Assembly: GCA_028691955.1 (NCBI GenBank) | Contig: JAQUYH010000002.1 | Location: forward strand, 13,012 to 77,011 | Source: Bacilli bacterium | Lineage (GTDB): Bacteria; Bacillota_I; Bacilli_A; RF39; UBA660 | Reading direction: 5' to 3' | DNA length: 64,000 nucleotides | Part shown: positions 4,025 to 44,039 of the stretch, piece by piece | How positions within the stretch are numbered: the stretch's first letter is position 1 | Layout of the letters: every line of letters starts with the position of its first letter | Translations under genes and position numbers: made by a program | Notes under the pieces: model-generated | What the model was told of the DNA's origin: nothing | The model's database searches: none | What the model saw: only the letters and a program-made list of their open reading frames with translations

Positions 4025-4376
4025 CGTTTTAAGTTTCGAATAAAAATTTCGGCCATTATAACTTTCTATTTAATTAGAGTTAATTATAATAATTTTCTAA
4101 ATATTATCAGTACTTAGAAGAAATTTTTATTAGTGAGTTTTCTTTCTCACACACAATTGTGATTTAGAATTACTTAATAAAGAAATTCTTTTTGAGAATC
4201 ATAAATAAATTACAATATTGTGGAAGAGAAGTCACCCGATTAGAAATTAAAAATATTAACTTCTAATCTTTCATATAAATTTTTGATGAAATCAAATCAC
4301 AAATATCATATCTTTACTAAGTATCTAAAATATAACATATATTTTTTTAAAAATCAATACTTTTCTTTTATTTTCT

Positions 4377-12809: not shown

Positions 12810-12886
12810 TGGCGTCCACGGGCAGAATCGAACTGCCGACCTATCGCTTAGGAGGCGATTGCTCTATCCTACTGAGCTACGAGGAC
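12810..12886 (-). tRNA. tRNA-Arg (anticodon CCT)
   Basis: Reverse complement GTCCTCGTAGCTCAGTAGGATAGAGCAATCGCCTCCTAAGCGATAGGTCGGCAGTTCGATTCTGCCCGTGGACGCCA. Cloverleaf with anticodon loop CTCCTAA and an encoded CCA end. Confidence 0.85.
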
Positions 12887-12946: not shown

Positions 12947-13453
12947 TTATTTCTTTAAATTAAATATACATAATATAACTAAATTAGTTATAAAAATAAA
13001 TTGATAAGTAAATTTCTGCAAAAACTCTTTTGTTCCAATAAACTTATCCACACCGTTTACAACCCAACTTTCAGCATATTTAGGAACAGTTAAACAATTA
13101 ACAGGAAACATATGAGACTTTATAATATCAGCTTCCAAGTCATTAATTTCATATTCACTACTTGCTGTAGCCAAAGCCAACTTAGGATGAGTAAAAGTTG
13201 ATTTAAACTTATCTTTAAAAGTACTACTAGGATCACTTAAAAAGTAATCATGTAAAAGTCCTGCTTTTGCAACATCTTTATAATTTAACTTTAGTGTTTT
13301 TGCTATTTTGTAAGAATAATATGACACCTTCACAGAATGATCATATCTTGAAATACCATGATGTTCAATTTCCTTTATAGAATTAAATTTATCATCATAT
13401 AGAATTGAACCTACCAGGTTAACATAATCTGTATCTCTTTCTATATCGCTCAT
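12947..13453 (-). CDS. HD-domain phosphohydrolase
   Basis: 168 aa with the H..HD...H...D pattern (HHGISRYDHSVKV ... LLHD). Confidence 0.6.
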   Translation of the reverse strand: MSDIERDTDYVNLVGSILYDDKFNSIKEIEHHGISRYDHSVKVSYYSYKIAKTLKLNYKDVAKAGLLHDYFLSDPSSTFKDKFKSTFTHPKLALATASSEYEINDLEADIIKSHMFPVNCLTVPKYAESWVVNGVDKFIGTKEFLQKFTYQFIFITNLVILCIFNLKK

Positions 13454-13540: not shown

Positions 13541-14302
13541 TCAATAAATAATCGCTAAAAGTCCATTAAAATCAACATTTAAAAGCAATAATATCAAAGC
13601 ACCTATACATAAAAAAGGTCCAAAAGGTACAATATTTGTTCTCTTAAGTTTTAAAATCATAATAGAAACAGGAAGCCCAATTATAGATCCTAAAAATATA
13701 GAAACGATAGATAGTTGATATCCTAACACTAAGCCAATAACACCCATAAGCTTTATATCTCCACCACCCATAGATTCCCTTTTAAACAAAAAGTCACCAA
13801 TTTTTTTTATCAAAAACATAATAGAGAAAGATATAAATCCATTTAAAACAGCAAATAAAGTAGATGATACCCCACCTTTAAAAAATAAAATTACTAAAAA
13901 AGCTATTGTAAAAAATATTAAAACCTGATCTGGAATTATCATAGTTTGATAATCACTTATAAAGACAATTACAGACATTGATATAAATAATAATACCAAA
14001 ACTAACTGTATAGAAAATCCAAACAATAAAAATGATAAAGCAAATAAAGATCCTGTTATAAATTCAAATATAGTATAAAACCAAGATATCTTTTGATTAC
14101 AATTTTTACACCTTCCACCTTGAATAAGAAAAGATAAAATTGGAATTAATTCCAAAGGAGTTAAAACATGATTACAGTTTGGGCAATGTGATCTAGGTTT
14201 AACAATTGATTGATTTCTAGGAAGCCTATACCCAACCACATTAAAGAATGACCCAAGTAAAGTGCCTAGCACAAAAAAATATATTGCAAATAAAGTAGTC
14301 AT
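13541..14302 (-). CDS. prepilin peptidase (A24 family, PilD/ComC)
   Basis: 253 aa. N-terminal tetra-Cys Zn finger (CPNCNH...CKNCNQ), polytopic, catalytic GGGDIKLMG motif. Confidence 0.85.
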   Translation of the reverse strand: MTTLFAIYFFVLGTLLGSFFNVVGYRLPRNQSIVKPRSHCPNCNHVLTPLELIPILSFLIQGGRCKNCNQKISWFYTIFEFITGSLFALSFLLFGFSIQLVLVLLFISMSVIVFISDYQTMIIPDQVLIFFTIAFLVILFFKGGVSSTLFAVLNGFISFSIMFLIKKIGDFLFKRESMGGGDIKLMGVIGLVLGYQLSIVSIFLGSIIGLPVSIMILKLKRTNIVPFGPFLCIGALILLLLNVDFNGLLAIIY

Positions 14303-14313
14303 TTTTACTCCTT

Positions 14314-16299
14314 CTATCCTTGAACTGATTGATATAAATTAAACATTGGTATAATTATAGCAAGTACTATGCCACCAACAATAACTGTTAAAAAGATAAT
14401 TAAAATAGGTTCTACGAATGTTTTAATTCTAGTTACTGAGTTTTTATGTAACTCCTGATAATAAGAAGAAACCTTAGCCATCATTTCTGGTAATTGTCCC
14501 GTTTTCTCCCCAGTTACCAACATCTCATAAGCGGGCATTGGGAAAGCCCAATGACCTTTAAATGACATTGATAACTTATCGCCATGAGCTAAATTAGATA
14601 TTGTATCTAATATAATCATCTTATAAATCTCATTATTCGTAACCTTGGTAAGAATTTCCATACTTTCAGTAATAAAAACATTGTGCTTTAATAATGAAGC
14701 AAAAGTTTTAGTAAACATCGTTACTTCATTATATATAATTACATTTCCAAAAACAGGCATATGCATTAAAAGCCACTGTACAATAGTTTTAAATGATTTT
14801 ATATGCGAATAGAAATATTTAAGGGTTACAATAACAGCTAATATAATCATTAACACTTTAAGAGCATTGGCCTTCAAAAAATCACTTACAGACATTACAA
14901 ATAAAGTAAATTCTGGAATCTTAGAATTATCCATTGAAGAATATATGTTTGTAAACTGAGGTACTACATACATTAAAACAAAAACAATAACACCTGTTGC
15001 TAAAACTAAAATAATAGCTGGATAAGTCATAGCTGTAATCATTTGCCTTCTCGTTTTATCAGCTTCAGTATAATAGTCCGCCATATCATCCAATGCTTCT
15101 GGAAGCTCGCCTGTCATTTCTGCTGTCTTAACCATATTAATTAATAATCTAGGAAAAGCCATCCCTTGTTTTGACATAGCTTCACTAAAATTTTCACCCA
15201 TAGTTAGTTCATATATAACATTTCTAATAATTTGTTTATACTTATTTTGTTTGTATTGCCTAGATAAAATTCTAAGTGATTCAATTAAAGTAATACCAGA
15301 CTTAATATATGTAGATAACTGAGTCAAAAAGAAAATTAAATCTTTTGTTTTAAATTTTGTTCTTATACTCTTACTTCTACCATATTTGAATTTTATCCAC
15401 GGTGAAGTTTTAATACTATAAACTTCATAATTTTCACTCAATAAGAAAGAGTGAACTTCAACTTTTGAAAAAGCTTCATAATGACCTTTTATAATTTGCC
15501 CATCAACATTTTTAACTACATATTCATAAGGTATCTTTTCAACACTCTTTACAGCATCTTCTCCTTCAAAATTAATTAGCAATTCCTGATGTTCCATTTC
15601 ATAACGGTTACGTTTATTTTTTACAAAAGTTAAATTGTCATACCACTTGTTAATATTTTCCTTGAAATTTTTAGGCAAATTATTTAATGCCCTAATGCCC
15701 TGTTGAATATAATCATTAAAAGTATGTTTTTCTATTTTAACATTCTTATTTATAAATTCATTTTTCTCTTTTAATTTTCTTTTTTCTTCCCTTTGTTTTC
15801 TTCTTTTTTCGTCTAACTGAGCCTTCTCAATTACTTTTCTCTCAAGTAATTGCTCTTTTTTTAATTTTCTAGCAATTTTTCTCTTTATATTTGCAACAGT
15901 TCTTTCTTCTCTATTTTTAGAACGTCTCTCTCTTGCTACTTTTGTTTTATCCCTTATTATTACAAAAGGAAAATATAAACCAAATATAAAATACTTTAAT
16001 ATTTTATATAAAGAAAAGCTAAGTAGTATAAATGAATTTAAAAAATACAAAACTGTTTTATCTAAAGAATTATATAATTTCATCGAAGAATAAACAATTC
16101 CATATAAGCAATATTTAAAAGTACTATAAATTGATTTATAAACTAAATAAGAGACAAACATAAAACCAATAAAAAAGTATTTAAAAGCACTATAAAAAGA
16201 TTCACTTAAAAATTTTACAGTCTCAAAAATTCCTAAAAAGAACCATCTTATAACAAACAAAGGCGCTGCAATTATAGACAAAATAACATTTTTTTTCAA
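14314..16299 (-). CDS. type II secretion/type IV pilus platform protein (GspF/PilC/ComGB family) with an unusual ~150-aa N-terminal extension (3-4 TM helices plus a KR/E-rich region)
   Basis: 661 aa. Two GspF domains at residues ~310-661 (DLIFFLTQLSTYIKSGITLIESL; EALDDMADYY...TYPAIILVLATGVIV). Residues 1-150 are hydrophobic helices followed by KVARERRSKNREERTVANIKRKIARKLKKEQLLERK... The SD-to-ATG spacing is long, so the true start is uncertain. Confidence 0.75.
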   Translation of the reverse strand: MKKNVILSIIAAPLFVIRWFFLGIFETVKFLSESFYSAFKYFFIGFMFVSYLVYKSIYSTFKYCLYGIVYSSMKLYNSLDKTVLYFLNSFILLSFSLYKILKYFIFGLYFPFVIIRDKTKVARERRSKNREERTVANIKRKIARKLKKEQLLERKVIEKAQLDEKRRKQREEKRKLKEKNEFINKNVKIEKHTFNDYIQQGIRALNNLPKNFKENINKWYDNLTFVKNKRNRYEMEHQELLINFEGEDAVKSVEKIPYEYVVKNVDGQIIKGHYEAFSKVEVHSFLLSENYEVYSIKTSPWIKFKYGRSKSIRTKFKTKDLIFFLTQLSTYIKSGITLIESLRILSRQYKQNKYKQIIRNVIYELTMGENFSEAMSKQGMAFPRLLINMVKTAEMTGELPEALDDMADYYTEADKTRRQMITAMTYPAIILVLATGVIVFVLMYVVPQFTNIYSSMDNSKIPEFTLFVMSVSDFLKANALKVLMIILAVIVTLKYFYSHIKSFKTIVQWLLMHMPVFGNVIIYNEVTMFTKTFASLLKHNVFITESMEILTKVTNNEIYKMIILDTISNLAHGDKLSMSFKGHWAFPMPAYEMLVTGEKTGQLPEMMAKVSSYYQELHKNSVTRIKTFVEPILIIFLTVIVGGIVLAIIIPMFNLYQSVQG

Positions 16300-16381
16300 A
16301 CAGCACCTCCCTATCTTAGATTACTATTAATTCAATTATAGCATACTTTAATTCTTTCATAAATATTTTTAGAGAATAAAA

Positions 16382-16405
16382 AGACTAAAATATTAATTTT
16401 AGTCT
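16382..16405 (-). terminator. hairpin (10-bp stem AGACUAAAAU/AUUUUAGUCU) followed by a U-run, overlapping the trmK stop
   Basis: The minus-strand RNA reads AGACUAAAAUUAAUAUUUUAGUCUUUUUAUU. Confidence 0.4.
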
Positions 16406-16987
16406 CAAATTAAAAAGCTCAACTTTTTTTAGTAAAATGCGAACTATATACTTTGATGGGATTTGATTAATTTCCTTTTTCTTAATTGATATTAAATAAT
16501 TATAATAACCATCCGATTTTATTCTAGCATTTAAATAAAATAATTTCTTTCTTTTAAAATAAGTAATAACATACCATTTCCCATCAAAAACAGTTTTAAT
16601 ATCGTATATGTAATAGCCTTTCTGTTTTATTTTTTTTATTAATTTATCAACATCATTATTAGACTGAATAATTAAGTCATTATCTATTTTTCTTTTCAAT
16701 ATTTTCAATATATTTCTTGTTCCCATACCAGAAATAATAACAATACGATTTTTTATGTCAATACCATTAATACCATCAGCCTGTATTATTGGAATATTTA
16801 AATTACAAAGCTTAACATTATCAATAGCCTTATTAACACACCACTTATTTATGTCAGTTCCAATACAATCAATATTTCGTTCTTTATTTAAATAAATTTC
16901 TAGCAAAGCATGATCTGTTCCGACATTAATAATTAACGAATTGTCAGGGACTAGATCTGCTATCTGTTTAAGTCTTAATGAAAGCAT
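16385..16987 (-). CDS. trmK: tRNA (adenine22-N1)-methyltransferase TrmK (YqfN family)
   Basis: 200 aa. N-terminal LRLKQIADLVPDNSLIINVGTDHALLEIYL matches the TrmK signature. Conserved dnaG-sigA-trmK gene order. Confidence 0.75.
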   Translation of the reverse strand: MLSLRLKQIADLVPDNSLIINVGTDHALLEIYLNKERNIDCIGTDINKWCVNKAIDNVKLCNLNIPIIQADGINGIDIKNRIVIISGMGTRNILKILKRKIDNDLIIQSNNDVDKLIKKIKQKGYYIYDIKTVFDGKWYVITYFKRKKLFYLNARIKSDGYYNYLISIKKKEINQIPSKYIVRILLKKVELFNLRLKLIF

Positions 16988-18069
16988 TATTCACCCAAAT
17001 AATCTTTTAGTTTTCTACTTCTAGATGGGTGCTTTAATTTTCTTAAGGCCTTAGCTTCAATTTGTCTAATTCTCTCTCTTGTAACTCCAAATAATTGACC
17101 TACTTCTTCTAGTGTCATAGACTTTCCATCATCCAAACCAAATCTTAAACGAATTACTTTTTCTTCTCTTTCCGTTAAAGTAAGTAAAACATCCGAAATT
17201 TCATCTTTAAGCATCTCATTAATAGTAAACTCCTCAGGACTCATATTACGTTCATCCTTAATAAAATCTCCAAGATGAGTATCATCTTCCTCACCTATTG
17301 GTGTTTCCAAACTAACAGGTTCTTGACTAACTTTAAAAATTTCTCTTACCTTTTCAGCCGAAATACCCATTTTAGCTGCCAACTCATCTTCAGAAGGCTC
17401 CCTATTTAATTCAAGAGTCAGTTGCCTTTGAATCCTAGCTAGTTTGTTAATTGTCTCGACCATATGAACAGGTACTCTTATGGTTCTAGCTTGGTCAGCT
17501 ATAGCTCTAGTTATAGCCTGCCTAATCCACCAAGTTGCATAAGTACTAAATTTATAGCCTTTAGTAACATCAAATTTTTCAACAGCCTTCATCAAACCAA
17601 TATTACCCTCTTGAATTAAATCAAGAAACAGCATTCCTCTTCCAACATATCTTTTAGCAATACTAACAACAAGTCTTAAATTAGATTCAGCCAAAATATC
17701 TTTAGCAGCCTGCTCTCCATTTTTAATTCTATCAGCCAAATCAAGTTCTTCCTCTATAGATAACAACTTAATTTGTCCAATTTCTTTTAAATACATCCTA
17801 ACAGGATCATTTATAGTTAAATCTTTAGTTAAAATATTGTCGTCCAATAATATTTTTTCAGGTGCAGATCCCTCATCATCATCTTCGCCAGAAACAATTA
17901 CAATATTATTTTCATTAAACATATTGTATAAATCATCTAATGTCTCAGCATCCATTTCTAACCCTTTTAAATTAGATGCTAATTGTTCATAAGTTATACA
18001 ACCTTTTTCTCTTCCTAGTTTTAGTAACTCTTCTTTTCTCTCATCATAAGATTTTATTTCATTAATCAT
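16987..18069 (-). CDS. sigA: RNA polymerase sigma factor SigA (sigma-70)
   Basis: 360 aa with regions 1.2 to 4.2, including the [27 protein letters not shown] motif. Confidence 0.95.
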
Positions 18070-19780
18070 TGCTATCTCCCTTTAACTCTACTATTTTTTG
18101 TAAAATTTCTTTTTGCTTTTCTAAATCACAAGTTTTTAATTCTTCACGAAGTCTTTTTATTTCATAATTCAAATTATATTCATTAATTGTGTTAATATAA
18201 TCATTAATCTCTTCTAAAGTATACTCATCCTTTAAATCTAAATCGATAATTTCTTTTAAATATCCATTTAATTCATCATCTAAACATGACATCAAATCAG
18301 CAATATTTATATCATTATTATCCTTATAAAATTTTAATACAGCTCTAGACAAAAGCCTAAATTTTAAAGTTGGTAAATATCCTGCTTTATGCTCATATAA
18401 TTTAATAACTTCTTTACTATTTACCATATAATAAAGCAAATACATTTCAGCTTTTTGATACTTATTAAACTTAATTACATTTGGATGCTCTTCAACTATA
18501 ATTTCTTTTTTTGCTAACTTTCTTCTTAGCAAATTACTATCAATGTTTGACTCTTCACTTATCTTATTAATAGTTACTTCTCTTAATATATCATCATCTA
18601 TTTCATTTAAAGATCTAATAACCTCATTTAAATAATTAGCTTTATCTTCAACAGAATTCAAATTTTTACCTTTTTTATAATAGCTAAGTTTAAATTCAGT
18701 CACTGTCAATGGATTGTCTAACTTTTGTCTAAATCTACCTTCACCATATTTTAAAATATATTCATCAGGATCCAAGCCTTCTTCTAGCCTAACAATTTTT
18801 GGTATAACACCTACATTAATTAATTCCTTACTAGCACTTTCAGTAGCTTTTTCACCAGCTGCATCACCATCAAAACAAATAATAACATTTTTAGCCATTC
18901 TTTTAATTAAATTAGCTTGATACTTTGTCATAGCTGTTCCCATCAAAGCTATAGTATTAGTTATCTTGACAGAATGACATCTAATAACATCCATAAATCC
19001 CTCTAAAATAATAACAGCATCTTCTTTTCGTGCGCTATCCTTAGCTCTGTGGTAATTATATAAAAGTTCTCCTTTTTTAAAAAGTTCTGTCTCTCTTGTA
19101 TTAATATACTTTGAATCACTCTTTTCATTATATATTCTCCCACTATATCCAATAACTTTACCACTAAGGTCACACAAAGGAAACATAATACGATTATAAT
19201 AAATATCAGAATAACCGTAATCATTTTTTACAACAAGTCCTGTTCTCATAATATCTTCATATGAATACTTTTTGTTAACCAATAGATTGATTAACATTTT
19301 ATAGTCTTTAAGAGATAAACCAATTTCAAAATCTTTAATTAACTTATCATCAATACTGCGATCATTCAAATACTTTTTAGCTTCTAATCCCTGTTTAGTA
19401 TTAATATTATTTTGATAAAGCTTCAATGAAAAACCATATATATCATACAAAACTTGTAATTTGTTTACTTGCTTATCTTTTACACTAATATCAATATTAA
19501 TATTTGCTTTTTCTGCTATTATCTTTACTGCCTCTATAAAGGAGATATTTTCATATTTTTGAACAAAATTAAAAACATTGCCCGATTCACCACAAGAAAA
19601 ACATTTATAAATTTGTTTTTCTTTAGAAACACTCATAGATGGATTTTTGTCATTATGAAAAGGACAAATACCAAAATAATTCTTTCCGTGCGGTGAAAGA
19701 CTTACATATTCTGATATAACATCAACAATATCAACACTTTTCCTAATTTCATTTAATTTATGCTCACTAATTAGTTCCAT
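18062..19780 (-). CDS. dnaG: DNA primase DnaG
   Basis: 572 aa. CHC2 zinc finger ([13 protein letters not shown]...CFSCG), TOPRIM domain (EGFMDV, DGDAAG). Confidence 0.95.
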
Positions 19781-19884: not shown

Positions 19885-19961
<77 letters not shown>

Positions 19962-20055: not shown

Positions 20056-20814
20056 TTAAAAATTCCAAATGTCCTCATCTGTTTCAGTTTCTTCTAAGTT
20101 TTCTGCTTTTTTAGCATCCTTCATAGAACTTTCTGTCCATATATCAGTAGGTTCTATTTTTAAATCTTCTTTCTTTTCTTCTATTTCTTTTGTCTCTTCT
20201 TTTTTTTCATCTTTAACAGATTCTAAAATTTCATTATTAGATGATTTTTTACCTTCATCTTCTAATTTTGGATTATTATCTTCTTTTTGATCCTCTAGCT
20301 TATTTTCCTCAGCATTATCTAAAGCTTCAGATTTTGTTTCTTTTACATCATCTTTTTTTTCTTCTTTATTTTTTTTCTTATCCTTTTTATTAAATTTATC
20401 TTCTTTAACATTGTCTGCAGTGCTGTTTTCCTTATTTTCTAAAGTTTCTGTTTCTTGAACATTTTCTTTTTTATCTTCTTTGAAATCGCCCAAAGGAACG
20501 CTTAATTCAGCTAATTCTGCATCACTAAGTTCAGGAGTATTATTTGTAGAAACTTCTTCTTTTTTAATAGTTTCTAGAGCCGGAGACTCTTCAACTTTTT
20601 TCTCTAAATCTTTATAAACAACATCATTTAATTTAATATTTTTAAGATTAACTACTTCTTCCTTTTTTTCTTCTTTAACTGGACTTATGTTTACTTTTCT
20701 TTCTGTCTTTTTATGACCAAAATCGGTTTTTTCTGCTATATAACCGATAATTATCATAATAACAAAAATAATTCCTAACATAGTCCACAAAATATTTTGT
20801 TCTATGAAAATCAC
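20056..20814 (-). CDS. membrane-anchored, highly charged K/E/D-rich low-complexity protein of unknown function
   Basis: 252 aa. One N-terminal TM helix (ILWTMLGIIFVIMIIIGYIA), then about 200 aa of KE-rich low complexity ending in the acidic tail ETETDEDIWNF. The opposite-strand ORF 20069..20290 is a translation artefact of the low complexity. Confidence 0.5.
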   Translation of the reverse strand: MIFIEQNILWTMLGIIFVIMIIIGYIAEKTDFGHKKTERKVNISPVKEEKKEEVVNLKNIKLNDVVYKDLEKKVEESPALETIKKEEVSTNNTPELSDAELAELSVPLGDFKEDKKENVQETETLENKENSTADNVKEDKFNKKDKKKNKEEKKDDVKETKSEALDNAEENKLEDQKEDNNPKLEDEGKKSSNNEILESVKDEKKEETKEIEEKKEDLKIEPTDIWTESSMKDAKKAENLEETETDEDIWNF

Positions 20815-24775: not shown

Positions 24776-25567
24776 TTACCTTAATAAAAATAGCATAGAT
24801 ACTACTGTTCCAATAGTTACTACCATGGTTACTATTGAAAGTAGTATTATATTTATAAAGCCATCATCAAATGTAATCGTAGAATGACCATTAGATTTAA
24901 CTTTTACTTTTCCTCTTTCACTACCACCATCTACGATTTGACTATTAGCTTGTTGTTCTCTTTTAGCATAATCTAACATTGTTTGTAGTTCAGCTTTAGA
25001 CTTACCAAAATCAGAGCCAGGAGCGGGGAAATTACTAGTTTGTTCTAATAACTGTTCTACTTGCATCATTTGATCACTTTCACGATTCCCAGTAGGTAAC
25101 ACATCCGCATTATTGACCTCAGGCGGCATAGCAAAATTTCTAGTGATGTCAACTAAAGTATTCTCCGCTTCATTTTGACCATTAAACCATTCAGCAAAAG
25201 AATTATAAGATGTTTCCAATACAATATCATCATTAAACGGAACATTTAAATTTCCTAACACTTGTTTTGCTTCTTTTGCTTCTTTACTAATTATTCCTTT
25301 TAAAGCAAATCTAGTATCTATTTCATCAATATGATCTAAGTCTTCATCACGAAAAGGTCTAATAATAGATATACGATTAGTATTAGCTAAAGTATTTAGC
25401 TTATCATTAGCTTTATTCTCTAAAACAAAAGTAATGTGTGGATAACCTATACTTTTTGGTACAACCAAATAAAAAGTTCCATTAACTAAATAAACATTAC
25501 TTGTAACTGTTTCAAATAAATTAGTATAAACACTTTTATTTTCTAAAACATCAGCCATAATTATCAC
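24776..25567 (-). CDS. hypothetical protein with C-terminal TM anchor
   Basis: 263 aa. The only hydrophobic segment is the C-terminal IILLSIVTMVVTIGTVVSMLFLL. No recognisable family. Confidence 0.4.
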   Translation of the reverse strand: MIIMADVLENKSVYTNLFETVTSNVYLVNGTFYLVVPKSIGYPHITFVLENKANDKLNTLANTNRISIIRPFRDEDLDHIDEIDTRFALKGIISKEAKEAKQVLGNLNVPFNDDIVLETSYNSFAEWFNGQNEAENTLVDITRNFAMPPEVNNADVLPTGNRESDQMMQVEQLLEQTSNFPAPGSDFGKSKAELQTMLDYAKREQQANSQIVDGGSERGKVKVKSNGHSTITFDDGFINIILLSIVTMVVTIGTVVSMLFLLR

Positions 25568-25568
25568 C

Positions 25569-26012
25569 CTATTCCTGAGTTATAGTTCCAGCACCTCTAG
25601 AATATTTAACTATAGTACCTTCACTGTCATAATTTATTTCAATGGACATAACATATCCATCTTCAGAACTTTCCTTAACAACCACTGCATTATTTTGATC
25701 TGCTTCATCAAGATAATATCCAGCATCTGCCAAATCAATTATATAAAGAGATGCATCTTCTAAAGTAACATCATCATATGTTAACCAAATATATTTGCCT
25801 GACGAGTTTATTCCTTCTTCTACATTAGTAATATTTCTTTCGCCAATAAGAGAATAAATTGAAGGAAACGTATCAGATTCTATTGTAATAACTGAATCTG
25901 TATTAGATATCTTAACCTTATTATTATTCATTAACATATTTGTAACAAACAACCCTACTGCAACTAGTGCTAAAACTATAGCAACCTTAAAACCTTTACT
26001 CATATCATTCAC
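25569..26012 (-). CDS. hypothetical secreted or N-terminally anchored protein
   Basis: 147 aa. N-terminal signal/TM helix (VAIVLALVAVGLFV), acidic remainder. Start lies 2 nt from the upstream gene stop. Confidence 0.4.
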   Translation of the reverse strand: MNDMSKGFKVAIVLALVAVGLFVTNMLMNNNKVKISNTDSVITIESDTFPSIYSLIGERNITNVEEGINSSGKYIWLTYDDVTLEDASLYIIDLADAGYYLDEADQNNAVVVKESSEDGYVMSIEINYDSEGTIVKYSRGAGTITQE

Positions 26013-43043: not shown

Positions 43044-44039
43044 TTGTTATTATTGTATATAGACGATGGAAGGAGAACAAAAATGAAGAAAATTATCGTT
43101 TTAAGTATGTGTGGATTATTATTACTTACAGGGTGTGGAAAGACAATACCTGTACTAGAAAATGGAAAAGAAGTTGTTGCTGAATTAGACGGGAAGCAAA
43201 TAACTACTGAAGAATTATATGACCAATTAAAAGAAGATGGCGGAACAACAGCAGTTGTTAACATGATTGATGAATATATAATGTCTCAAGAATTTGATGA
43301 CGAAGATGCAGCAAAATCATATGCTGATACACAATATTCATATTTAAAAGCCCAATACGAAGCTTCAGGAGAAGATTTAGATACGGCTATTCTTCAATAT
43401 TATGCTAGCGTTCAAGAATTCAAAGACATGATCATAAAAGACTACAAGAGTACTCAAGTAGCTAGAAAATACTACGAAGAAAATTTAACAGATGATGAAA
43501 TAAATGAATATTATGATGATAACATTTATGGAGCAATGACAGTTAGACATATCTTAATAATTCCTGATACTACTGATGACATGACAGATGATGAAAAAGC
43601 TGCTGCAAAAGCTACTGCTCTTACAACAGCAAAAGACCTAATTACAAAATTAAACAACGGTGCTGATTTTGCAGAACTAGCAAAAGAAAACTCTGCAGAC
43701 AGTACAGCAAGTAATGGAGGATTATTTGAAAACTTTAAAAAAGAAAACACAGATGCAGCATTCTGGCAAGCATCATACAACTTAAAAGATGGTGAATATA
43801 CTAAAACACCAGTAGAAAGTGCTTATGGATATCATGTAATATTAAAAGTAAGCTCAGAAGATAAACCTTCTCTAGAAGATTCAAAAGATACAATAGTTGA
43901 TGCATTAGTTGATGAAAAGATGGATGAAGACAACGCTGTTGATCTAGCATGGATTAAAATCAGAGAAAAATATAATTTAAACATTGTCGATTCAGACATT
44001 GAAGGCGAATACAAAGATACAATTGGTACAATACAATAA
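43044..44039 (+). CDS. prsA: foldase lipoprotein PrsA (parvulin-type peptidyl-prolyl isomerase)
   Basis: 331 aa. Lipobox LLLTGC, and a parvulin domain (MTVRHILI ... YGYHVILKV). Confidence 0.85.
   Translation: MLLLYIDDGRRTKMKKIIVLSMCGLLLLTGCGKTIPVLENGKEVVAELDGKQITTEELYDQLKEDGGTTAVVNMIDEYIMSQEFDDEDAAKSYADTQYSYLKAQYEASGEDLDTAILQYYASVQEFKDMIIKDYKSTQVARKYYEENLTDDEINEYYDDNIYGAMTVRHILIIPDTTDDMTDDEKAAAKATALTTAKDLITKLNNGADFAELAKENSADSTASNGGLFENFKKENTDAAFWQASYNLKDGEYTKTPVESAYGYHVILKVSSEDKPSLEDSKDTIVDALVDEKMDEDNAVDLAWIKIREKYNLNIVDSDIEGEYKDTIGTIQ

Follow-up and report, generated by a model that had tools for sequence, protein, structure and literature searches.

What does a gene for a filament platform protein do beside a prepilin peptidase gene when neither an assembly ATPase nor a pilin is encoded next to it, and what is the role of the long N-terminal extension of that platform protein? 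The question is raised by two open reading frames (ORFs), pilC-ext and pilD, in a 64,000-nucleotide stretch of the Bacilli bacterium contig JAQUYH010000002.1, which we call the window. An earlier note on this DNA had read them as a GspF/PilC platform protein with a genuine N-terminal module beside a prepilin peptidase. We recovered both ORFs at the coordinates given there, both on the minus strand and with pilC-ext upstream, its stop codon separated by 11 nt from the pilD start, and Pfam, NCBIfam, the Shine-Dalgarno site and the homologues bear this reading out. The evidence makes it reasonably probable that the pair belongs to a small type IV filament machine of RF39-like Bacilli, whose other partners would be encoded outside the window and in which a three-part N-terminal arm of PilC-ext would act as a membrane anchor or scaffold. 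The machine is ordinary, the N-terminal add-on is not.

PilC-ext is a member of the GspF/PilC superfamily by its domains, its transmembrane (TM) layout, its signature residues and the operon context of its relatives. Pfam detects the T2SSF family (PF00482) in two stretches (E 1e-51), and full-length NCBIfam models of GspF and PilC cover aa 258-659. The best NCBIfam model is TIGR02120 (GspF; E 7e-78, model positions 1-400 aligned), and the Thermus PilC model aligns to aa 258-656. The protein is an equivalog of no curated subfamily tested: TIGR02120 reached 262 bits against its equivalog cut-off of 424, the PilC models NF052607 and NF052606 scored 254 and 194 bits against 700 each, and the HofC and XpsF equivalog models also stayed below their cut-offs (222 versus 401 and 192 versus 650 bits). 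In the AlphaFold2 (AF2) model the PilC/GspF N-domain consists of strands 256-263, 269-276 and 292-297 and helix 279-288, and homologue P0019 shows a weak match to T2SSF_N (PF28597). The core TM segments lie at about residues 428-446, 479-497 and 632-650 according to hydropathy and insertion free-energy (dG) windows, and AF2 helices span them. Y426 and P427 in the first of these segments (TMS1) as well as E630 and P631 in the third (TMS3) are invariant in 64 homologues; these Tyr-Pro and Glu-Pro pairs have been highlighted as GspF/PilC motifs (PMC10790770). Matches in the Protein Data Bank (PDB), by sequence or by fold, were found only to PilC, GspF (EpsF, OutF) and TcpE proteins. The best sequence match is PilC in 3jc8 (E 1e-42), and superposition of the cytoplasmic domain onto EpsF and OutF gives target-normalised TM-scores of 0.85-0.89.

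ComGB lacks the N-domain and carries Gln-Pro in the place of Glu-Pro in TMS3 (PMC10790770). The presence of the N-domain and of Glu-Pro thus places PilC-ext with the PilC/GspF type and not with ComGB. In addition, the ComGB model NF041012 scores 147 bits, short of its cut-off of 240, and is limited to aa 322-656. PilC-ext is not ComGB, and the ordinary comGB/comC pair considered earlier is not supported.

The product of pilD matches A24_N_bact (PF06750, E 1e-32) and Peptidase_A24 (PF01478, E 5e-17). Reading of the sequence reveals four cysteines in its N-domain (CPNC...CKNC), and the translation contains the motifs SDYQTMIIPD and GGGDIK. Their aspartates, the second within the GxGD-type motif, we take to be the putative catalytic pair, as is typical of the family.

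The extension of PilC-ext comprises 257 aa without counterpart in known platform proteins. It is real, as had been proposed, but it is longer than the ~150 residues first assigned to it, and a conserved adaptor of 77 aa had not been separated out. The 120 best homologues are 553-900 aa long and 49-74% identical, and 130-480 residues precede the motif LLINFEG in every one of them where that motif could be located, so the extension is common to the best homologues. An N-terminal motif, P..V.R.FFLG, also aligns across homologues. A scan with one genome per GTDB species returned relatives of PilC-ext in at least 575 species, with record titles such as 'Bacilli', 'Tenericutes', 'Mollicutes' and 'Mycoplasmatota' for metagenome-assembled genomes and 'Acholeplasma sp. 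CAG:878', from which we infer that the hosts are uncultured gut Bacilli of the low-GC RF39/RFN20/ML615J-28 group. A database protein identical to PilC-ext (P0001) is titled 'type II secretion system F family protein [Bacilli bacterium]'. The contig of a close relative encodes a Mur ligase, FemAB and FtsW and that of another relative Spo0A; this gene content agrees with the prediction that most RF39 members are walled and possibly sporulate (PMC10868615). The closest NCBI relative, P0010 (74% identity), is called as a protein of 553 aa with an unannotated gap of 466 nt upstream (L095:9535-10001). Gene callers thus evidently sometimes clip the extension, and database lengths would understate it.

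The extension matched no curated family and no solved structure. With phmmer, aa 1-117 returned 0 matches at E <= 0.001 against 1.84 billion representatives; this part is too divergent or too biased for a single-sequence search. In the open-access literature we found no description of an extended platform protein (PilC) or of pili in RF39-type lineages.

In the first part of the extension, aa 1-117, Phe, Tyr, Ile and Leu abound, a Lys or Arg occurs every 11-17 residues and [KR][YW]xxxG motifs stand at aa 18, 40, 62 and 102. Its hydrophobicity power spectrum peaks at 98-99 degrees, corresponding to 3.67 residues per turn or an 11/3 helix. The observed power was reached by 8 of 2000 shuffles of the window's sequence, and 106 of 119 homologues have their peak at 97-100 degrees. 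Plotted on an 11/3 wheel, Lys, Arg, Glu and Asn fall on one face, Phe, Leu and Ile on the opposite face and Tyr on both flanks, while nearly all Gly and Ser lie within one lateral stripe. The motifs follow the same period. Across the family successive copies are spaced by 18, 22, 26, 29, 33, 40, 44 or 55 residues, and 129 of the 134 spacings of up to 72 residues deviate by no more than 0.1 turn from a whole number of 11/3 turns (26% expected). All PilC cores examined are free of the motif. AF2, run on an alignment of 64 sequences, draws aa 3-151 as one helix, with pLDDT 65-79 over aa 1-110. On the summed Hessa scale the best 19-residue insertion windows of the extension score +1.0, +2.9 and +3.5 kcal/mol, compared with -3.6 and -5.6 kcal/mol for core TM1 and TM3 and family medians of -2.8 to -4.8 kcal/mol for the three core segments. 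Periodicity, motif phase, AF2 and insertion energies thus favour one helix, and the description of this part as '3-4 hydrophobic helices' in the earlier note is probably wrong: aa 1-117 probably form one continuous 11/3 amphipathic helix instead of 3-4 TM helices. With a length of ~15 nm such a helix could not span the bilayer. From the stripe pattern, with Lys up, Tyr at the interface and Phe, Leu and Ile down, we infer an in-plane position in the cytoplasmic leaflet of the membrane.

Apolipoprotein A-I, alpha-synuclein and the perilipins contain 11-residue-repeat (3-11) amphipathic helices that lie on lipid surfaces. By analogy only, aa 1-117 share with them the 11/3 periodicity over ~100 residues, the 22-/11-residue repeat spacing and the Lys-bearing polar stripe. 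In PilC-ext, however, the polar face is much narrower, the apolar face is far more aromatic and the module is fused to an integral membrane protein; a sequence relationship is absent.

The alternative that survives best, although we regard it as rather unlikely, is that aa 1-117 form a bundle of two or four extra TM helices. This would make PilC a 5- or 7-TM protein and the charged arm a cytoplasmic loop-like linker. The segment is very hydrophobic overall, and several points weigh in favour of a bundle and against an in-plane helix. Residues 6-24, with the +1.0 kcal/mol given above, are a marginal TM candidate; in 39 of 109 homologues a window of the extension scores below 0 kcal/mol; and the in-plane topology is derived from periodicity, from a crude scale of insertion energies and from an AF2 model of the single chain with moderate confidence. 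Moreover, AF2 often renders uncertain TM repeats as a single helix, and in long homologues (P0037, P0116) an acidic region lies between two hydrophobic blocks and could in principle be extracellular. Against the bundle, the regularly spaced Lys and Arg residues fall within every candidate TM span, and the remaining windows are far from the values of the core segments. The hydrophobicity phase is coherent across ~100 residues, and hairpins separated by loops would have no reason to keep the motifs at integer helical turns. The motif is present in 0 to 7 copies, and a parity constraint on their number is not apparent.

The in-plane helix continues into a charged segment and a conserved adaptor. 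Segmented as aa 114-181, the charged arm of PilC-ext contains 29 Lys+Arg and 13 Asp+Glu (net +16). Across the family it has a median length of 56 aa (range 31-339), a composition of 40% Lys+Arg and 24% Asp+Glu and a median of 0 Gly+Pro; some long arms are internally repeated. It is net positive in 104 of 109 homologues, with net charges from -10 to +38, and AF2 predicts it as helical with pLDDT ~50. This variability would fit a spacer better than a specific binding surface; nucleic acid and anionic lipid are candidate ligands of the basic arm. Compared with ER/K single alpha-helix (SAH) spacers, the arm is Gly/Pro-free and helical in AF2 but net basic rather than balanced, and it has no clear enrichment in SAH-type salt-bridge spacing. 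The adaptor then leads into the beta-beta-alpha-beta N-domain (aa 256-297).

Selection was compared between the window and the loci L010 and L008, all three without an adjacent pilB. Core dN is 0.09-0.12 at a whole-gene pilC dS of 1.3-1.9. The pN/pS ratio is 0.14-0.16 for the core, 0.23-0.52 for the adaptor, 0.44-0.53 for the hydrophobic part and 0.56-0.58 for the charged part of pilC; it is 0.26-0.36 for pilD and 0.23-0.26 for dnaG, included for comparison. These sequence comparisons indicate that every part of pilC is under purifying selection and that both genes are functional. As pN/pS stays below 0.6 in every part of the extension, decay and a downstream 'true' start, such as the one near residue 150 for which the earlier note had asked for a check, are both excluded. 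The conserved PilD motifs together with purifying selection imply that substrates of the peptidase exist.

Where, then, are these substrates and the ATPase? As the earlier note had stated, they are absent from the window. A tblastn search of the 64 kb with the relatives' PilB, two pilins, ComEA, ComEC, YqfQ and Gate protein gave nothing significant, and two scans of all six frames for class III signal peptides found none. Relatives provide the missing context. Their gene order is dnaG-rpoD-trmK-yqfQ(-)-pilC-ext-pilD-pilB(-)-pilin-pilin-Gate(-)-PDZ/Lon, and the two pilins, which start with MKKNNNRG|FMLVETLV and MRKQNG|FTTVELI, match N_methyl. Among 62 classifiable species loci, 36 have pilB and two pilins right past pilD, with pilB at a median distance of 166 bp. 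The other 26, including the window, have no pilB despite at least 6 kb (6-9 kb) of sequence downstream. The junction between pilD and the HD-domain gene seen in the window recurs in L010, L095, L070 and L074 and is kept in species whose PilC proteins are only 49-74% identical.

One such locus could be followed further. L044 carries pilC-ext and pilD, and its end is identical (100%) to the first 712 bp of L092. The latter encodes a PilB homologue (P0224), two pilins, the Gate protein (ylbJ-like) and the PDZ-Lon protein (ylbL-like) next to holA. On the joined contig the pilB module thus lies 18.5 kb downstream of pilD, inverted and abutting holA, and L098 is a second species with a detached pilB-holA module. 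Gene order downstream of pilD differs between the window and L044, so the position of pilB in our genome is not predicted from this case. The comparisons suggest that the pil cluster sits where two conserved syntenic blocks meet and that rearrangements cut it at the divergent pilD/pilB point. A split locus best explains the missing partners of the isolated pilC-pilD pair, and by extrapolation from relatives pilB and the pilins of this genome are most likely encoded outside the window, predicted as a module of pilB and two pilin genes beside the Gate and PDZ-Lon genes and possibly holA.

The relatives' PilB proteins have no N1 domain; T2SSE covers aa 13-391 (L001:12812-14326 (-), P0121, P0224, P0131, P0159). 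They end in an acidic, disordered tail of 50-170 aa with a median net charge of -12 and a conserved Y(D/G)LxxALxYT(N/S) motif; the acidic tail mirrors the basic arm of PilC. PilM/N/O-like and PilT genes were not seen next to the clusters. In many type-A loci (L001, L005, L015 and many others) comEA-comEC lie ~6-8 kb upstream of pilC, a proximity that hints at a possible link to DNA uptake; the window is without them. The second pilin of some relatives is a modular protein of 511 aa with N_methyl, Ig-like and ALK/LTK glycine-rich domains (L003:14970-16505 (+)), which suggests an adhesive filament function in those species. In one type-A relative a third N_methyl protein, of 292 aa, is encoded ~5 kb from the pilB-pilin module (L097:1775-2653 (-)), so there may be more pilins than the two adjacent genes encode.

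A different reading of the same gene order is that pilB and the pilins were lost and that PilC-ext and PilD have been re-used, for example as a membrane channel or, as had been suggested before, as a platform that binds nucleic acid. The empty window, the 26 species lacking the partners nearby, the basic arm of nearly all homologues and the comEA-comEC genes near many clusters, which make a DNA-uptake link plausible, would all be compatible with it. Nevertheless we consider re-use improbable. The sole genome of this type that was followed up has its pilB and pilins 18.5 kb away, and L098 likewise has a detached module, so relatives carry these genes either adjacent or displaced on the same contig. 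PilD has kept its motifs under a selection that implies substrates, and an arm varying so widely in length and charge is unlike a conserved specific binding surface.

Nor do the data suit a decaying remnant of a competence pseudopilus operon (comGB/comC), the degenerate locus that had also been considered. Nothing but the absence of a neighbouring ATPase and pilins speaks for it, and we regard it as very improbable: both ORFs are intact and translationally coupled, core dN is ~0.1 at saturated dS, comparable to or better than dnaG, the pilD-HD junction is maintained among diverged species, the ComGB model falls short as described above, and the extended gene is intact in at least 575 species. 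We give a negligible chance to an annotation artefact in which the true start would lie near residue 150-250, since the clipped call of P0010 and its empty upstream gap are outweighed by the strong Shine-Dalgarno site at the TTG start, the aligned N-terminal motif, the low pN/pS of each part and the presence of the extension in all 120 best homologues.

We therefore return to the filament machine with partners elsewhere, and propose the following picture for it. A PilB ATPase without N1 domain and at least two pilins would complete the machine, and an old rearrangement would have broken the ancestral cluster precisely where pilD and pilB diverge. In PilC-ext, aa 1-117 would form a very aromatic in-plane helix of ~100 residues in the cytoplasmic leaflet, whose Gly/Ser stripe could pack against a neighbouring helix. 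The charged, Gly/Pro-free and mostly basic helix would be a spacer of variable length, and the adaptor would be a three-helix unit fused to the peripheral N-domain of PilC. The PulF platform is a trimer, and its N-domain is peripheral, mobile, positively charged, lipid-contacting and dispensable for core function (PMC10790770). Since the extension leaves from a peripheral, lipid-contacting domain of this kind, each PilC protomer would extend its arm along the inner membrane face in the order adaptor, charged spacer and in-plane anchor. The arm could tether the mobile N-domain and enlarge or fix the platform, and its role would be that of a membrane-surface anchor or scaffold. Such a built-in scaffold would suit a setting where PilM/N/O-like genes are unseen beside the clusters and where PilB lacks N1 and bears an acidic tail; by analogy, we hypothesise that the extension could substitute for PilM/N/O or GspL/M. 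A bolder version, which we hold to be unlikely, has three in-plane 11/3 helices, one per protomer, on rigid, length-tunable charged arms as a membrane outrigger or corral that replaces these proteins. It might serve as a torque arm that keeps the platform from turning, or thin or organise the inner leaflet where pilins are extracted.

Further points count against this proposal. The pilB and pilin genes of this genome were not found in the 64 kb, out of a 163-kb contig, and the completeness of the machine is extrapolated from relatives. Charge co-variation between the PilC arm and the PilB tail was expected to be negative but came out at rho +0.49 (p = 0.056, n = 16). Finally, a single-alpha-helix pattern is not clear in the charged arm: the excess of i/i+3 and i/i+4 salt bridges is z = 0.13 in the window, with a family median of 1.7 and 28% above 2.

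Set beside known systems, PilC-ext resembles type IVa pilus (T4aP) PilC from Thermus thermophilus (2WHN) and Myxococcus xanthus (3JC8), which has the same N-domain, two T2SSF domains, three TM segments and Tyr-Pro and Glu-Pro motifs; as there, the gene is encoded with PilD and, in relatives, with PilB and pilins. It differs by its 257 additional N-terminal residues (190-480 in relatives), by its score below the PilC equivalog cut-off and by the relatives' clusters, which show no adjacent PilM/N/O or PilT genes. With GspF/PulF/EpsF of type II secretion systems (T2SS) PilC-ext shares its best model and the fold of the cytoplasmic domain; its host, in contrast, is a Bacilli of a monoderm lineage where a secretin and a T2SS context are missing, and the extension is again particular to it. 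The Com pilus shares the monoderm host, a minimal gene set, an ATPase that lacks N1 as ComGA does and, in many relatives, nearby comEA-comEC genes. Beyond the N-domain and TMS3 differences from ComGB, the relatives have only two adjacent pilin genes, whereas comG operons carry about five. PilM/PilN/PilO and GspL/GspM, which sit at the cytoplasmic membrane face around platform and ATPase, are functional analogues at most; they have no homology to the extension, which is covalently part of PilC.

Table 1 Features of the pilC-ext/pilD locus in the window and parts of the PilC-ext protein.
Feature	Residues	Window position	Strand	Description
HD-domain gene		12947..13453	-	Pfam HD; occupies the pilB position of type-A relatives and marks the synteny break
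pilD		13541..14302	-	Prepilin peptidase/N-methyltransferase of 253 aa; own AGGAG site
pilC-ext		14314..16299	-	GspF/PilC-family platform protein of 661 aa with 257-aa N-terminal extension; TTG start, TAG stop
Core	aa 311-661	14314..15369	-	Two T2SSF cytoplasmic domains, three TM segments
PilC/GspF N-domain	aa 258-310	15370..15528	-	Beta-beta-alpha-beta, motif AFSKVEVHSFLLSE; NCBIfam PilC/GspF alignments start here
Adaptor	aa 181-257	15529..15759	-	Conserved, family-specific: EFINxNVxIEK..., three short helices, then LLINFEGEDAxKS
K/R/E-rich charged helical arm	aa 118-180	15760..15948	-	Assigned from composition, family statistics and AF2
Aromatic/hydrophobic module	aa 1-117	15949..16299	-	Inferred single long 11/3 amphipathic membrane-surface helix
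Shine-Dalgarno site GGGAGGTG		16304..16311	-	GGAGG core, 6-nt spacer to the TTG at 16299; from sequence reading
dnaG-rpoD-trmK block		16385..19780	-	Directly upstream of pilC-ext; flank kept in nearly all relatives

The window has a G+C content of ~28%, and almost every gene lies on the minus strand. The neighbours of the pair are housekeeping genes. Upstream lie dnaG, rpoD and the trmK-like methyltransferase gene; downstream follow genes for the HD-domain protein, a tRNA-Arg, an O-methyltransferase, a DUF6541 membrane protein and a GT2 glycosyltransferase, as well as two U32 peptidases, greA, tig, ffh and recG. Promoter-like sites in this AT-rich DNA are at background (32 found, 30 expected), and the promoter/terminator scan found no terminators. 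The tRNA-Arg(CCT) gene at 12810-12886 (-) stands just past the HD-domain gene, where other species have pilB, and may be related to the synteny breakpoint. A tRNA-Arg(TCT) gene (19885-19961 (-)) is found upstream of dnaG and, beyond both, a gene for a protein of 252 aa (20056-20814 (-)) whose N-terminal segment is hydrophobic and gives way to ~200 aa of low complexity, rich in Glu and Lys; it has no Pfam match. Two adjacent ORFs of 263 and 147 aa, also without Pfam match (24776-25567 and 25569-26012 (-)), are located between lepA and a tRNA-Ala/tRNA-Leu pair. The Rfam PGK RNA motif (RF03040) was detected at 4097-4190 (-) with 59.9 bits against a gathering score of 50.8; its place is between ffh and the recG-like helicase gene rather than in front of a phosphoglycerate kinase gene. 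Over the window (1-64000) the GC skew has strongly negative values (-0.2 to -0.4), with a sole break to near 0 at 42-44 kb, the site of a plus-strand gene (43044-44039).

How the platform couples the ATPase to pilin extraction is less well understood than any other step in type IV filament assembly, and minimal monoderm systems are favoured models for it. The lineage described here provides a variant from nature: its platform bears a large conserved module that is probably bound to the membrane surface and whose spacer varies more than ten-fold in length. If this module fixes or scaffolds the platform, it would bear directly on the need for PilC to rotate and on the contribution of the alignment complex. 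Annotators should not count a lone pilC-pilD pair in these genomes as an incomplete system. Overall, these very widespread uncultured gut Bacilli retain a type IV filament system, often near comEA-comEC, which would be relevant to DNA uptake or adhesion.

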